Assembly: GCF_056746865.1 (NCBI RefSeq) | Contig: NZ_CM163382.1 | Reading direction: 5' to 3' (one strand) | Length of the DNA: 64,000 nt | Shown: in pieces, positions 8,967 to 61,779 of the stretch | How positions within the stretch are numbered: position 1 is the stretch's first letter | Layout of the letters: every line of letters starts with the position of its first letter | The notes under the pieces: generated by a model | Told to the model about the DNA's origin: nothing | The model's database searches: none | Seen by the model: the letters and a program-made list of their open reading frames with translations, nothing else | Made by a program: the position numbers and the translations under genes

Positions 8967-11033
<2,067 letters not shown>

Positions 11034-11199
11034 AGTATATGTTCCTCTGCGCCAGACGACACGCAGGCAACAGCCGTCCCGGTACGGGCAGCGTGGTCAA
11101 GTGTGAATGGCGGTTTTCAGTTCAGTCTCAGAAGGGAAAATCAGTGTGGTCGCTGTGAACACGTCATCACACTAAGGTCAGATAAGTCGTCTGTCGGGC

Positions 11200-11805
11200 T
11201 CAGCCACGACTGCAGCCAAAGTTGCGCTCACCGGTGCCGTAAGCTTTGGTACTCTCCTTCGCCAGATAGTCAGCACGCTCCAGCACCTGCTGAAAGCCGG
11301 TGTCATCATCGCGTTCCAGCCACACAGCCGGCCTGACCGGAAAATGCGCCAGCGTGGTATGATCTCCGGTATCCACTCCCAGGGCACTGCACCACGCCTG
11401 TTTAATCATCCCGGCCAGTGATCCCGGAGCGCGGTAATCACCGGCACGACACCAGGTATCCCGGTTGACCAGCAGCATCAGGTGATAGTGTTTTTTACCT
11501 TTGCACTCCCCAAACTCCCGGGCCCAGACGTAATGCAGGGTTGTGGGATGCACGCGTTTACCTTCCCGATGCTTACGTTTCTGGTAAGCGTCGATTCGGG
11601 CTTTCAGGGCATTAATGAAGCGGGATATCACAGCTGCGTCCGTTGCTGCCGGTACATCCGGGAAACGCAGGTCAACCCGCAATGCCGTCAGGCGGGGATG
11701 AACATTCAGTGCGTGCCGCACCGTCTCACGAATACGTTGCTGCCAGAAGGGGTTGTATTTGTAGGTCATGGTTAAATCTCCGTATGGTTCATACGGAATA
11801 GCCAC
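11200..11805 (-). CDS. YfjJ/YagK-like island protein (inovirus Gp2-type family)
   Basis: 201 aa; paralog of 7929..8495. Confidence 0.55.
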   Translation of the reverse strand: MAIPYEPYGDLTMTYKYNPFWQQRIRETVRHALNVHPRLTALRVDLRFPDVPAATDAAVISRFINALKARIDAYQKRKHREGKRVHPTTLHYVWAREFGECKGKKHYHLMLLVNRDTWCRAGDYRAPGSLAGMIKQAWCSALGVDTGDHTTLAHFPVRPAVWLERDDDTGFQQVLERADYLAKESTKAYGTGERNFGCSRG

Positions 11806-11964
11806 GTCGTAAAAAATACGCAGAGTCCCTGAAGTGACCTCCGGCAGGACACTGTCTCAGGCACTCTGTGATAACCCGAACGGTCGTCTCCGGACTGACG
11901 GTTGAATTTTCAGCGTCGTTTTTTAATGTAAAAAACCGGTTACGGGTAAGGCTGTGAGGAGGGA

Positions 11965-12165
11965 GTGATGGTGATACGCAAAAAGAAGTGCAGGGACTGT
12001 GGTAACGCGATTACTCATAATACAGTTTGTTGCCCGTATTGTGGCGCTGTCGACCCCTTCGGTTATTACCGGAAGACCGATCGTCTGCTCTGTTTACTGA
12101 CGTTACTGCTGGTGCTGATTCTGGTTACCGTTTCAGGCGTCAGTGTATTTGTACTGTTGCAGTAG
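11965..12165 (+). CDS. small hypothetical protein with zinc-ribbon motif and C-terminal hydrophobic helix
   Basis: 66 aa; C-x2-C…C-x2-C followed by LLCLLTLLLVLILVTVSGVSVFVLL; no homolog recognised. Confidence 0.3.
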   Translation: MMVIRKKKCRDCGNAITHNTVCCPYCGAVDPFGYYRKTDRLLCLLTLLLVLILVTVSGVSVFVLLQ

Positions 12166-12249
12166 GTTACAGGGGAGGGATTATCAGGAATCGGCGGGGC
12201 AGAGCGACCCGCTGCGTTTGTTGTGCCAGACAGTAACGCACCGGCTCCC

Positions 12250-12325
12250 TGCAAAATGGTACCTGAATCAATCACAGTCAGGTATTCCGCCAATCCGTGA
12301 TCGAATCGAGCGGAATACTCAGCCC
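12250..12325. repeat. miniature remnant matching both termini of the IS21-family element at 18514-21142
   Basis: GCAAAATGGTACCTGAATCAATC matches the IS left end (GCAAAATGGCATCTGAATCGATC) and CCAATCCGTGATCGAATCGAGCGGAATAC matches the IS right end (CCAATCCGTGATCGAATAGAGCGGAATAC). Confidence 0.45.
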
Positions 12326-12497
12326 CGACAAATACGAGTCCCCTTCAGAAGATACAGGCCGGTAATGCCTGAACGCCTGCCCCTCTGTACACCATTCCCT
12401 TTTGATTTCGAATTCTTTGTTGCCGTTATACTGCTTAATGTTCCCGATCTTCCGGTGCACAGATAACACCGGAGTCATCGTAGCGCGGATTCAAGAT

Positions 12498-12710
12498 TCA
12501 GGTGACATATTTCCAGACGGAAGCCGGCACGCGATCGTAAAGTTTGTTCATTGTCAGTTCTGCCAGCCGGTTGTCAACGGCAGAGTTAAAGGCTTCCAGC
12601 TCCGCAGGGGTAAGTTTATAACGTGTGTGGGAAATCACTTTTTCCAGCGTCTCCCGGGATGAACAACGACGGAACTGATACAGCCAGTCTTCTTTGGTTT
12701 TAACTTCCAT
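12498..12710 (-). CDS. small hypothetical protein
   Basis: 70-aa ORF with coding-like composition (MEVKTKEDWLYQFRRCSSRETLEKVISHTRYKLTPAELEAF…); function unknown. Confidence 0.4.
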   Translation of the reverse strand: MEVKTKEDWLYQFRRCSSRETLEKVISHTRYKLTPAELEAFNSAVDNRLAELTMNKLYDRVPASVWKYVT

Positions 12711-13434
12711 TAGCCTCTCATTACTTTATGCTGCGGTTAACAGGATGCTGTCAGCATACCGCACCAGCCTGGCATTCTGGTACCCTCCCCAAACTCATTA
12801 CTCCCGTGCCACCACTTAACCGGTCTCTCAGACTGTCACTCACCAGGTCGGATACGTTTACCGCTCAGACGGATGCTTAATGCACTCTGTTCACGTGTGT
12901 TGCAGGTACGTTTTATATACGCAGGTTATACGCCAGCTATCAGAGATAGCCCTGTGGGTACAACGCAATCTGCTGCTACTGCGTTCTCATGCCCACTGAT
13001 CGCACTCACAGTGTTTATTTCACATATATGAACTCATGTATTTGATCTCATGTGTTTGATCTCTCTTATATATTTATAATACCAATCAGACAGTCTTATC
13101 CCACCAGTGATAACTGTCGCCTGCCCACAGGTCACAGGCTGATATACCACAACCGCCTTCAAAAACAACTCTGCAATTATCAGAACGCTAGTTTTCCCCT
13201 TGTCTCACGAAAGTCCTCCCTCCTTTATCGCGTGCGCGTGCGGAAGCATCGTTTCGCAACAACCACCCGACATACCGGTACAGCTCAGCCACCGCAATCC
13301 CCCCGTTTATCTCCTGACGGTCACATTCCCGATTATTTTTTACGTTTCTCCCCGGTTGTTATGCCGGTGAAGGTGGTGCGTTGTTTTCATCACCAACGCC
13401 GGTTGAGATTAACAACATCCGGAGGAACATTCTC

Positions 13435-13641
13435 ATGACCCCCCCAGTTTCACTGATGGATGACCAGATGGTCGACATGGCGTTTATCACTCAACTGACT
13501 GGCCTGACCGATAAGTGGTTTTACAAACTCATCAGGGATGGGGCCTTTCCGGCCCCCATCAAGCTGGGCCGCAGTTCCCGCTGGCTGAAAAGTGAAGTGG
13601 AAGCCTGGCTGCAGGCGCGTATTGCACAGTCCCGTCCGTAA
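13435..13641 (+). CDS. alpA: AlpA-family prophage transcriptional regulator
   Basis: ATG at 13435 within ORF 13381..13641; …MAFITQLTGLTDKWFYKLIRDGAFPAPIKLGRSSRWLKSEVEAWL… is the characteristic AlpA/MerR-like HTH. Confidence 0.7.
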   Translation: MTPPVSLMDDQMVDMAFITQLTGLTDKWFYKLIRDGAFPAPIKLGRSSRWLKSEVEAWLQARIAQSRP

Positions 13642-13721
13642 TTTCTGACCGTTATCCGTTCACCCGCAGCAGACGTAATCCCCGGCCTGCCGGCGGCATT
13701 CTGCTGCCTGTTATATCCCCC

Positions 13722-14339
13722 GTGAGGAATATGAAAATGAAACAACAGTATCAGACCCGTTACGAACTGCTCCACGAAAGCTACCAGAAATGGCTGACCG
13801 GCTTCACCCGGCACGCCGTATCCTGGGGCGTGTGTCATCCGAATATCTACTACTTCCATAATCTGACGCCCGGGTGGGTGTCATTCAATGGTGAAAAACC
13901 GGAGATTGCCATCGTACCCCAGAGCCTGCACCGGCTGATTTATGGCCCTGACAAACGGGCCACGCCGCCCCTGGATGATGATCTGATAGTGAATTTATGC
14001 ACCAGTGAACATCTGCTGGTTCATCATCCGATGCTGGAAGGCATTCTCCTGTCTGAATGTGAACGTCTGAGGCAGCGTTCTCTGGCAAATAAACTGATTA
14101 GCCTCTTCCGTCAGTTTGGTGGCACGGAGTTGCGCCTCAAACTGGTCTGGCTTTGCTGGCTTGATTTAATGACCGGAAACAGCCTTGAAGACTGGAAAGA
14201 GAACCTGAAACGGAAATCAGAAAAAGAGCTGGAGGAATGGATCATCAACCGTCAGAGGCAGAGCGCAGCACTGACGGATCTGATGGATCAGTACGTGCTC
14301 CTGGCATACCGCACAACGGTTGACGATAGCCGCAACTGA
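13722..14339 (+). CDS. hypothetical protein
   Basis: 205-aa ORF immediately downstream of alpA; no family recognised. Confidence 0.45.
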   Translation: MRNMKMKQQYQTRYELLHESYQKWLTGFTRHAVSWGVCHPNIYYFHNLTPGWVSFNGEKPEIAIVPQSLHRLIYGPDKRATPPLDDDLIVNLCTSEHLLVHHPMLEGILLSECERLRQRSLANKLISLFRQFGGTELRLKLVWLCWLDLMTGNSLEDWKENLKRKSEKELEEWIINRQRQSAALTDLMDQYVLLAYRTTVDDSRN

Positions 14340-15541
14340 TGCCGGTTGCTTCCGGAAGGTGTGACAAAATACGGAAATGATGATGCTCCCGGCCCTGCAT
14401 GCTCACCTGCAGAGCGTGTTCGTCGTCATCATACTGAGCCATGACGGGCGTCTTAAGGGCATCCTGTCATTGCTGAGCAGGCAACACCACCAGAGGAGCC
14501 ACGGACAGGGATGTTCTTTACAGCCCGATACACGCCAGGTTCTCAGCAGACTGAATGTGCAGGTGCGGTTATTCACCAGAAATGGCATGCTGCGGTACAT
14601 ACCCATCCTGGTGACAATATGTACGTGGCGACAGCGATCCCGGCACTGTGGAAGAGACTCACTCAGCCTGCAGGATATTCTTTCCGGCATCCGGGAATGT
14701 CCGCCTGAATGCAAACAGGATGATATTTGAATCCGTAATACTGTTCTTTCATCATAAATAATTTATGCAGATACAGTTAACCGTTACAGTAGCAGGTTTG
14801 TTTTACCGGGAAATAATATCCGTCAGACTGATGCCGGAACATATCTGAAACACGTTATGATGTTTTGTTATCAGAAATGTTGTATATTCTTATCCGTGGC
14901 GACAGTTTAATGCCCTCTGGTATCACCTTGGATAATGCATATCCTGCGATGATTCGTTATATTTACGGGACACGCCTCTTTTCATTGTGCTCCTTTTCAG
15001 ACTTCATTTTCCGTAAGTGTTCCCCGGCATAAAGGAGGTACCTTTCTGGCGTTTATAACTCTCTTTATCGGTGACGCCGGTAATACAGGGAATACCACAC
15101 CGACAAACGAGGTATTAACAGACGATATTTCAGTGTCCATAATTTTTCTGTCCGGTTAAATAACGTCAGTCTGCTGCCCTCTGACTGTAATCATCAAAGC
15201 CGGAATGCATACCGGGTTACAACGTAAAAAAAGTGATGCTGGCCCCCGGTGCAGCTGGCGGGCGAAACATGTTTACCTTTCAATACCCCCTGTCTGCAGT
15301 CTCCACTCTTCCATCCTCTTAAGCTACGTCGGCCACATGAATGCACTTCCATGATAACAGGTATTCCTGTCAGCATAACGAAGCCGGTTACCTTCCCTTC
15401 CTCCTGCACTTCCTGTCATAATGACTATACAGCGCGCAGATTGCCTTTTTATTGACCACCTTAATATACCATTATAAACTTCTTTTTATCATGTTATTAT
15501 CACCTTGTTATGTTTAATTTTTAAGCAACCGGAGAAAGGGG

Positions 15542-60600: not shown

Positions 60601-61779
60601 TTATTTCCTCCGCAACGTTACGCCGCCGGAAACCGCATCACCCTCTTTCTGTAACGCGTCCTGTTGCACAACATAATCTGCCGCCAGTGCGCTACGCAGT
60701 TTGTCGAAGCTGGCAAAGTTCGCAGCCCGTAGCTGAAGGTGAAGCGTCTGGCGTTTTTGATCAAAGTTGAAACCACGCATTTCGATGTCGGAAAGTGACG
60801 CTGATTTCAGGGCACTGGCGATCGCTGACAATTCTGCGAGCAGCCGGGTATCGTCGGCCTGTGGGCGATATTTTTTCAGCGCCATCGTCACCTGAGAGCG
60901 TAAATTCACAATCCGCTTCTGCTCCGGGAATAGCGTTAAGAACTGTTTCTCCGCCTGGGTGCGGCTTTGCGCCACCTGTTCGCTGACGCTCCATAACGTC
61001 ACGCCCCGTTCCACTACCAGCGCAACCAGAATCAGCAATACCGGCAGAATCATCACCCGCCAGCGCGCCCACTGTTTTCGGTAGCTGACACGAGGCTGCC
61101 ACGGCCCTGTTAGCAGGTTCCCTTTCGGTTCGCCATAAGTGGTAATGGCGGGCAGAGCCGTAACGGTCAGGCGTTCGGCGTCCGCACCAGCCCATGCAGA
61201 CAGTTCTTCCGGTGCAATGCCGACCACAGTTAGTGAAATCGGTAAATCCTGCTCATTGAGCTGTGCGCGGAACATGGCCGGAGCCAGCGCCCGCCCGGCG
61301 CTCCATCCCCGGCATTCATCGATGCGGCAGATAACCCGTTGCGCATCGCCAGCCATAAACCCACAAGGAATAGACATCCAGTCCGGCGCGACGGTAGCGC
61401 GGGTGATGCCGTTTGCCTGCAACCATTGCGCAATGTTGCGCATATGCTGCTGGTGAATCACAGCTACGGTTGCCAGTTGCTGGTCGATTTTCAACGGGGC
61501 GAAATGCAGTTCATCGATATCCTGGTTCAGCTCTTCTTCCAGCAAGGCGGGCAGAATCGTCGGTATCTGCTTGCGGGGCACATCAGGCAGTTCAACCTGC
61601 CAGACGCTGATCCATTCGCCGGGAATGTAGAGTCGAATCGCATCAGTTTGCAGCCATTGCTGGAGACGTTCGTCAGCAACGTCAGGCCAGATACCGTGCT
61701 CCACGTCGGGTGTATGGCGCTGCCAACGGATGGGATCAGCGGCGCAAAGCGGGAAAAAAATCTCAAGCATGGAACTCAC
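60601..61779 (-). CDS. gspL: type II secretion system protein GspL (YghE-like)
   Basis: 392 aa; position between gspK and gspM; central TM segment (…WRVMILPVLLILVALVV…). Confidence 0.8.
   Translation of the reverse strand: MSSMLEIFFPLCAADPIRWQRHTPDVEHGIWPDVADERLQQWLQTDAIRLYIPGEWISVWQVELPDVPRKQIPTILPALLEEELNQDIDELHFAPLKIDQQLATVAVIHQQHMRNIAQWLQANGITRATVAPDWMSIPCGFMAGDAQRVICRIDECRGWSAGRALAPAMFRAQLNEQDLPISLTVVGIAPEELSAWAGADAERLTVTALPAITTYGEPKGNLLTGPWQPRVSYRKQWARWRVMILPVLLILVALVVERGVTLWSVSEQVAQSRTQAEKQFLTLFPEQKRIVNLRSQVTMALKKYRPQADDTRLLAELSAIASALKSASLSDIEMRGFNFDQKRQTLHLQLRAANFASFDKLRSALAADYVVQQDALQKEGDAVSGGVTLRRK

Follow-up and report, generated by a model that had tools for sequence, protein, structure and literature searches.

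A small open reading frame of Escherichia coli genomic islands very probably encodes a zinc-ribbon protein with a C-terminal membrane helix

The small open reading frame (ORF) described here is very probably a real gene of E. coli islands, its sequence predicting a product of 64 to 65 residues in which a zinc-ribbon head is carried on a C-terminal membrane helix. By sequence comparison, it belongs to an unnamed and uncharacterised family of small zinc-ribbon membrane proteins in mobile elements. The reading we favour, to which we assign a probability of about 0.6, is that of a genuine tail-anchored zinc-ribbon protein acting through its head. The sequence data show the ORF itself, its conservation, synteny, and selection pattern, and its distant kinship with ORFs of plasmids; that it is translated, that its product binds zinc and has the topology proposed here and, most of all, that it tethers a partner are inferred. 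All coordinates refer to the window, i.e., the whole stretch of 64,000 nucleotides of contig NZ_CM163382.1 (assembly GCF_056746865.1) that was analysed.

Reading frame, start codons and translation signals

The frame is open from 11965 to 12165 on the plus strand and offers three adjacent in-frame start codons, GTG 11965, ATG 11968, and GTG 11971, giving 66, 65, and 64 aa, respectively. RefSeq/PGAP carries the ORF as WP_001547002.1, a 65-aa "hypothetical protein" beginning at ATG 11968. An earlier interpretation of this DNA made from the letters alone (here, the sequence-only reading) had proposed a 66-aa ORF; the open frame is indeed present, but 66 aa is probably an overestimate by one or two codons, ATG 11968 or GTG 11971 being more likely the true start than GTG 11965. 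In the commonest metagenomic allele, GCT ATC replaces the first two starts, leaving only the equivalent of GTG 11971 common to both sequences; this codon belonged to the DNA search pattern, and its conservation is therefore not an independent test. The features of the ORF and its immediate surroundings are as follows.

11968..12165, plus strand: small CDS, including the TAG stop at 12163-12165 (ORF list, RefSeq annotation, related copies intact)
11956..11963, plus strand: Shine-Dalgarno sequence GAGGAGGG, strong, 4 nt before ATG 11968 and 7 nt before GTG 11971 (read from the sequence)
11770..11967, no strand: divergent intergenic region of 198 nt, shared with the Gp2/YfjJ-like gene
12192..12225, plus strand: weak terminator-like hairpin, GGCGGGG, 9 nt, CCCGCTG, plus a T-rich run, about 27 nt past the stop (from the fold)

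The Shine-Dalgarno sequence appears both strong and exposed, and its purine-rich GAGGGAG core is retained in alleles without the ATG. RNA folds of the small-ORF locus were not better than those of shuffled sequences: the minimum-free-energy fold contains a 5' U-run able to pair with the Shine-Dalgarno sequence at a nonsignificant z of -1.3, and the hairpin at 12192..12225, with a z of -0.5 (again not better than shuffles) and missed by the terminator scan, is tentative. A consensus promoter scan of 11770..11967 found none on the small-ORF strand; a weak sigma-70-like pair, TTGAAT at 11902-11907 and TAATGT at 11924-11929, can be read from the sequence.

The divergent region also holds an AT-only inverted repeat, GTTTTTTA-ATG-TAAAAAAC, at 11918-11936, where the length of the T-run differs between loci in the alignment. 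From its sequence and position this repeat could be an operator, or the -10 part of a small-ORF promoter. The Gp2-family ORF on the other side of the region can be extended upstream to GTG 11805, giving 201 aa instead of the 189 aa annotated by RefSeq from 11769; if that start is used, the divergent region is shorter by 36 nt.

Island context

The ORF lies in an island backbone with a P4-type integrase and a tRNA-Phe site. In the equivalent region of CB6886, the island adjoins tRNA-Phe on the yqgA side and carries a tyrosine integrase, Ag43, and CbtA/CbeA, followed by capsule genes. Locally, two DUF7828+Zn_ribbon_11 genes and the Gp2-family gene (all on the minus strand) are followed by the 198-nt divergent region and the small ORF (plus strand), and then by the Hha gene (minus), the AlpA gene (plus), a gene for a 200-aa hypothetical protein, a YeeP-like GTPase gene, and Ag43. 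The three neighbours that define the module are these.

11200..11769, minus strand: YagK/YfjJ-C, "inovirus Gp2 family" gene, divergent from the small ORF (Pfam PF11726, E 1.5e-48)
12498..12710, minus strand: Hha/YmoA-family paralogue, convergent with the small ORF (Pfam PF05321, E 7e-26)
13435..13641, plus strand: AlpA-family HTH regulator gene, same backbone module (Pfam PF05930; RefSeq annotation)

This arrangement is shared by the related loci, the Gp2 gene being divergent and less than 400 nt upstream of the small ORF in 106 of 106, the Hha gene convergent and less than 900 nt downstream in 112 of 116, and the AlpA gene on the plus strand in 91 of the 95 loci with a match. The same strand downstream of the small ORF is gene-free for 1.2 kb. 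In the original annotation of the SRL island, a YfjJ-like orf39 is directly followed by a Hha-like orf40, the small ORF being omitted (PMC6980539).

Predicted protein architecture

Numbered from ATG 11968, the cysteines form two pairs, C8-x2-C11 and C22-x2-C25, separated by a 10-residue spacer, with C21 as an extra cysteine. Two CxxC knuckles with a spacer of beta-hairpin length are the pattern of the zinc-ribbon class, to which the head is predicted to belong. Three segments can be distinguished.

11989..12042, plus strand: zinc-ribbon core, C8-R-D-C11 ... C21-C22-P-Y-C25 (cysteine retention, omega of codons 2-39)
12052..12084, plus strand: juxtamembrane motif D-P-F-G-Y-Y-R-K/N-T-D-R, residues 29-39 (conserved in the alignment)
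12085..12162, plus strand: C-terminal tail-anchor helix, residues 40-65 (hydrophobicity in all alleles, AlphaFold)

The 19-residue Kyte-Doolittle (KD) mean reaches 2.97, in residues 40-65 only, and one residue or none lies beyond the hydrophobic stretch. As expected of a tail anchor, this hydrophobic helix is the only transmembrane segment, it falls within the last ~30 residues, no signal peptide is present, and the positive charges sit N-terminal of it. AlphaFold models a helix over residues 30-64 with confidence (pLDDT about 90), the N-terminus being low-confidence (pLDDT below 50). The combination of zinc ribbon and hydrophobic C-terminal helix claimed by the sequence-only reading is thus confirmed by the two CxxC pairs and the KD values. 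Among the 329 ORFs of 40 to 120 aa in the window, no other joins a CxxC...CxxC pattern to a segment of KD ≥2.5, and such an ORF arose in just 1 of 200 Markov-1 simulated 64-kb windows, making it unlikely that these features came together by chance.

Intactness and substitution pattern

A DNA-pattern scan of metagenome contigs yielded 120 loci which, together with the E. coli loci, gave 127 copies. The ORF is intact in 112 of them (64 to 66 aa; 37 distinct DNA alleles), and ~15 copies (about 12%) are frameshifted or truncated, 10 of those representing a single 49-aa allele. By a single-HSP criterion, the small ORF was intact in 86% (86 to 88% overall) versus 91 to 95% for the Gp2, AlpA, and 200-aa neighbours; per nucleotide, it is disrupted more often than the Gp2 gene. 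Selection was assessed by omega from substitution counts along a minimum spanning tree of the alleles, a crude S/N test that becomes noisy when changes are few.

Small ORF codons 2-39, true frame, intact alleles: omega 0.24 (S 59.5, N 51.5, p 8e-14)
Small ORF codons 2-39, all copies, regional alignment: omega 0.35
Two off-frames of small ORF codons 2-39: omega 0.64-1.41
Small ORF codons 40-65, true frame: omega about 1.0 by count
Gp2 CDS, true frame: omega 0.24
Hha CDS, true frame: omega 0.68
Downstream intergenic DNA, three frames: omega 0.81-0.84

The data support purifying selection on the zinc-ribbon half, similar to that on the neighbouring Gp2 gene, the excess of synonymous changes in this half having p values of 1e-10 to 1e-13. 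One plus-strand frame of the upstream intergenic DNA also has a low omega, on just 29 changes. At the DNA level, the small ORF is no better conserved than its flanks, mean pairwise identity being 0.93 in the upstream intergenic DNA and 0.75 in the downstream DNA, compared with 0.88 for its zinc-ribbon half and 0.74 for its tail.

The cysteines are kept almost throughout the intact copies (C8 in 112 of 112, C11 in 111, C21 in 109, C22 in 111, and C25 in 104, i.e., 93 to 100% for the four ligands), and the four ligands are invariant in a combined alignment with distant relatives. A sublineage of 8 copies reads CCPGYV (C25Y), with K6K7 changed to TV. The tail is constrained only in being hydrophobic, its sequence varying freely. 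Its 19-residue KD is 2.6 to 3.05 in all 37 intact alleles, the maximum in the other five frames being 2.3, and amino acid replacements in it alter hydrophobicity less than random single-nucleotide changes would (mean |dKD| 2.18 versus 2.93, p 0.008). Three divergent tail types, LLCLLTLLLVLILVTVSGVSVFVLLQ, IVTILLALIIVVLLTTVSVSVYILCSW, and IFTALLALLVVVLLVTSAVSMYVLW, align codon by codon with L/I/V exchanges, hydrophobicity persisting through about 25% nucleotide divergence. Absence of conservation in related islands had been named in advance as what would count against the ORF, whose support was then said to be "only the ORF itself"; it proves to be conserved, syntenic, and mostly intact in those islands, with substitutions of the coding type in its zinc-ribbon half, so that this description is no longer true.

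Distribution

Matches to the 201-bp ORF were found in 3,496 of 5,426 complete E. coli genomes, about two thirds, often in multiple copies (median 2, maximum 6) and nearly all on the chromosome; PGAP labels the product "hypothetical protein" in most of these genomes. The ORF is already in RefSeq as hypothetical, and these data overturn nothing known. If expressed, the protein would rank, among small membrane proteins that await characterisation, with the most widespread in both pathogenic and commensal E. coli; its gene sits alongside the regulatory YfjJ-like, Hha, and AlpA genes in the backbone of islands with Ag43, CbtA/CbeA, and capsule genes.

By tblastn, no homologue was detected in CP4-57 or CP4-6, the K-12 prophages that harbour yfjJ and yagK, and peptide-pattern and DNA-pattern scans of 100,044 species-representative genomes (GTDB) found nothing except one contig, NZ_WACP01000054.1 (683 bp, coverage 0.59), which carries the small ORF in a Paenibacillus tengchongensis assembly and is almost certainly a contaminant. 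Phage and plasmid collections hold essentially only copies of the E. coli chromosomal type, several of the "plasmid" matches being to records of 0.8 to 4.9 Mb.

Orthologues of the Gp2 neighbour, at 63 to 70% identity, occur in Rouxiella, Klebsiella, Enterobacter, Serratia, Salmonella, and Pectobacterium, and no small zinc-ribbon/transmembrane ORF was found upstream of them in any of these six genera. The module there mostly consists of the Gp2/YfjJ-like gene, AlpA, and then one or two DUF7828 zinc-ribbon genes, all on one strand, with a variable upstream cargo (OLD-like ATPases, ParE/Phd). To judge from the gene orders, E. coli has a rearranged form of this module, to which the small ORF and hha also belong, and the small ORF, with no counterpart upstream in the six genera, is thus specific to this rearranged E. 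coli/Shigella module. Its absence from the K-12 prophages, the GTDB representatives, and the six-genus modules indicates a gene that is dispensable and young. It offers a clean test case of how a small gene evolves when it is young and confined to one lineage, its head being constrained and its anchor free to vary.

Family resemblances and distant relatives

The Pfam and NCBIfam zinc-ribbon families that were matched (Zn_ribbon_15, zf-ChsH2, Prok-RING_1, UPF0547, Zn_ribbon_3, and DZR; NF033497) all scored below their gathering cut-offs, the best score for the small ORF being 16.2 bits against a cut-off of 28.9 and all E-values 0.018 or worse. A sequence search of the PDB gave nothing significant and no solved relative. 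No study of the small-ORF protein turned up when the literature was searched by accession, sequence, architecture, or the families of the neighbouring genes.

A profile search of 1.84 billion representatives returned strong E-values for the E. coli family only, together with weak matches to other small zinc-ribbon/transmembrane proteins. A subset of the latter reads C-x-DCG-x8-10-C-x2-C-x-S-x-DPFG-x2-R, then a helix. Aligned with this subset by hhalign, the small ORF gave a probability of 98.8% (E 5e-17) over 52 columns that take in the two knuckles, DPFG, and the helical segment, a comparison that is partly circular because the subset was drawn from the matches of the first search. Searching with the DPFG-family profile gave matches at E 1e-13 to 1e-29.

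The DPFG proteins (69 to 83 aa, e.g., WP_001364024.1 of the IncFIA/FIB plasmid pCFSAN004180G) are of the size class of the island protein and, like it, have a basic N-terminus, two CxxC knuckles, DPFG-x2-R, and a single hydrophobic helix in the same order, the motif common to both being DPFG..R..DR. Both are found on mobile elements of the Enterobacteriaceae, and all the relatives are annotated "hypothetical." Identity is about 30 to 37%, and the helix, which is terminal in the island protein, is followed by 10 to 20 more residues in the relatives. In ~120 IncF-type plasmids, a 72-aa relative, mostly unannotated, is encoded on the strand opposite to tra (anti-tra), with traN on one side and a 127-aa gene adjoining trbC on the other.

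NZ_CP012500.1, 63033-63251 (2691-2909 of its extract), plus strand of the extract: example of the 72-aa relative

Identity of this plasmid ORF with artA of F was considered and rejected, artA being located between trbA and traQ. Another relative, in a Dot-like conjugative element, has a PLD-family nuclease gene as its neighbour and overlaps a called gene on the opposite strand, and further ones are in Serratia, Raoultella, Cellvibrio, and Collimonas records. The link to the IncF anti-tra-strand ORFs suggests a common, as yet unnamed, mobile-element function.

More remote resemblances were also found. DUF2116 (PF09889, "probable treble clef") resembles the island protein in that a hydrophobic stretch comes after a short zinc-binding module; against this profile, the distant relatives score 14 to 24 bits (gathering cut-off, 26.8) over nearly all of its 59 positions, and NCBI names one of them DUF2116. 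The window protein itself had no match to DUF2116 at E≤1, and as this family is itself without known function, membership would explain nothing. The phage families PHROG 38187 and 14275, whose function is not known, have a zinc ribbon and a transmembrane segment that align to residues 6-56 (E 7.7e-6 and 9.6e-5), and their profiles are longer (144 and 178 positions) by a C-terminal domain past the membrane segment that is missing in the island protein. That the small ORF is the remnant of a longer gene was rejected: the downstream frames and overlapping ORFs (12143-12466 and 12027-12236 on the plus strand, 12066-12293 and 12278-12478 on the minus strand) had no Pfam or PHROG match. A tblastn match at 61160-61231 was dismissed as due to chance, lying as it does inside a GspL-like type II secretion gene (60601-61779, minus strand).

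Proposed role and alternative explanations

As a tail-anchored zinc-ribbon protein, the product would be an inner-membrane component of the P4-integrase island backbone, with its basic N-terminus and four-Cys zinc ribbon (residues 1-39) toward the cytoplasm and its single C-terminal helix (residues 40-65) as the anchor, leaving essentially nothing in the periplasm. This predicted topology is like that of C-tail-anchored proteins, with a cytoplasmic N-terminal domain, a helix at the extreme C terminus, and a scant periplasmic tail. TssL of the enteroaggregative E. coli type VI secretion system is one such C-tail-anchored inner-membrane protein, inserted by YidC (PMC3426401); it has no sequence relationship to the island protein. 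The functional part would be the zinc ribbon together with the DPFGYYR-x-TDR juxtamembrane motif, the helix acting as a passive anchor. The head may bind a cytoplasmic partner, protein or nucleic acid, of the element or of the host, and keep it at the membrane, the protein then serving mobile elements as an accessory adaptor or regulator. Within the tail-anchored reading, the tethering role specifically is a guess.

A wider interpretation, which we regard as rather improbable, is that the island ORF and its plasmid relatives make up an unrecognised tail-anchored zinc-ribbon family used at the inner membrane by islands and by F-type and Dot-type elements, in partnership with Gp2/YfjJ. Members might, for example, sequester a partner with a DNA-processing or regulatory role, or hold it in place, in excision, transfer, or exclusion, and the invariable linkage to a Rep-like (Gp2/YfjJ) gene in the E. 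coli islands would mirror a functional partnership.

The ORF could instead be non-functional or decaying, kept open mainly by recent spread and recombination of the island backbone and not by selection on a product. We consider this unlikely. In its favour, DNA identity is not above that of the flanks, 12% of the copies are disrupted (per nucleotide, more than the Gp2 gene), Cys25 is missing and K6K7 altered in one sublineage, the ORF was not found outside the E. coli lineage of the module, and the original SRL island annotation (PMC6980539) skipped it. Against decay, the synonymous excess is confined to the annotated frame of the zinc-ribbon half, where it equals that of the neighbouring real gene, and the tail is still hydrophobic at about 25% nucleotide divergence. 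Remote homologues with the same motif and architecture, in plasmid tra regions and in other proteobacteria, argue further for a functional product, as hitch-hiking is no explanation for their presence in unrelated contexts. The same remote protein homologues, together with the amino-acid constraint on the cysteines and DPFG, point to selection on the product and so weigh against a leader or cis-regulatory ORF, in which translation would count and the peptide would not, tuning the divergent promoter region or the convergent hha. The position of the ORF, convergent with hha and adjoining both the best-conserved intergenic region of the locus and the AT-rich inverted repeat, would suit such a leader, but the 1.2 kb that follow on the same strand are gene-free, and we judge this explanation very unlikely.

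The product might alternatively be a toxin (type I toxin-antitoxin-like, abortive-infection, or holin-like) whose helix harms the membrane once expression escapes repression; the sequence-only reading had pointed to some small membrane toxins, as well as regulators, as having such an architecture. A toxin is in keeping with the small size, the very hydrophobic helix, and the presence of several copies in mobile elements; convergence with hha could permit the transcripts to overlap at their 3' ends, and the 5' U-run that pairs with the Shine-Dalgarno sequence in the minimum-free-energy fold (not significant, z -1.3) points the same way. The E. coli type I toxins Hok, Ldr, Ibs, TisB, ShoB, DinQ, and ZorO are likewise small, single-helix, hydrophobic, and located in accessory DNA; to our knowledge, however, zinc ribbons are foreign to them, and unlike them the island protein is constrained in its soluble head and not in its helix, which swaps freely among three types at an omega of about 1. 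Constraint on the head with a free anchor is the opposite of the pattern expected of a pore-forming toxin, and we rank the toxin model lower because of it. The Shine-Dalgarno sequence, moreover, is strong and exposed, and no partner or defence association came to light: an Rfam search of 10500-14500 (E≤1), limited to the RNAs that Rfam holds, found no RNA family and hence no antisense or antitoxin RNA, a scan for antisense promoters found none of significance on the opposite strand inside the ORF, and PADLOC-DB 2.0 (E≤0.1) gave no defence-protein match for the small ORF and four neighbours. We accordingly consider a toxin decidedly improbable, and the head/tail pattern, taken with the lack of antisense RNA and defence matches in these searches, inclines us away from a pore-forming toxin and toward a membrane-tethered adaptor or regulator.

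Other variation in the island backbone

An IS3-family element (ISEc31-like) is inserted exactly between the two DUF7828+Zn_ribbon_11 genes, at 8967-9455 and 10623-11033 (both on the minus strand).

9440-10700, plus strand: IS3-family element (orfA, 9440-9787; orfB, 9607-10653)

In NZ_CP029747, which lacks the insertion, the two DUF7828 genes overlap by 4 nt. The ends of both are changed in the window, where they encode 136 and 162 aa versus 127 and 141. In CB6886 the same type of element occupies another site, separating the small ORF from hha. The window has a full-length island Hha paralogue (70 aa); of the 120 related loci, only 17% gave a full-length single HSP for this gene, and in several strains the version annotated by RefSeq is shorter or frameshifted. 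With its omega of 0.68, this paralogue seems to decay faster than its neighbours.
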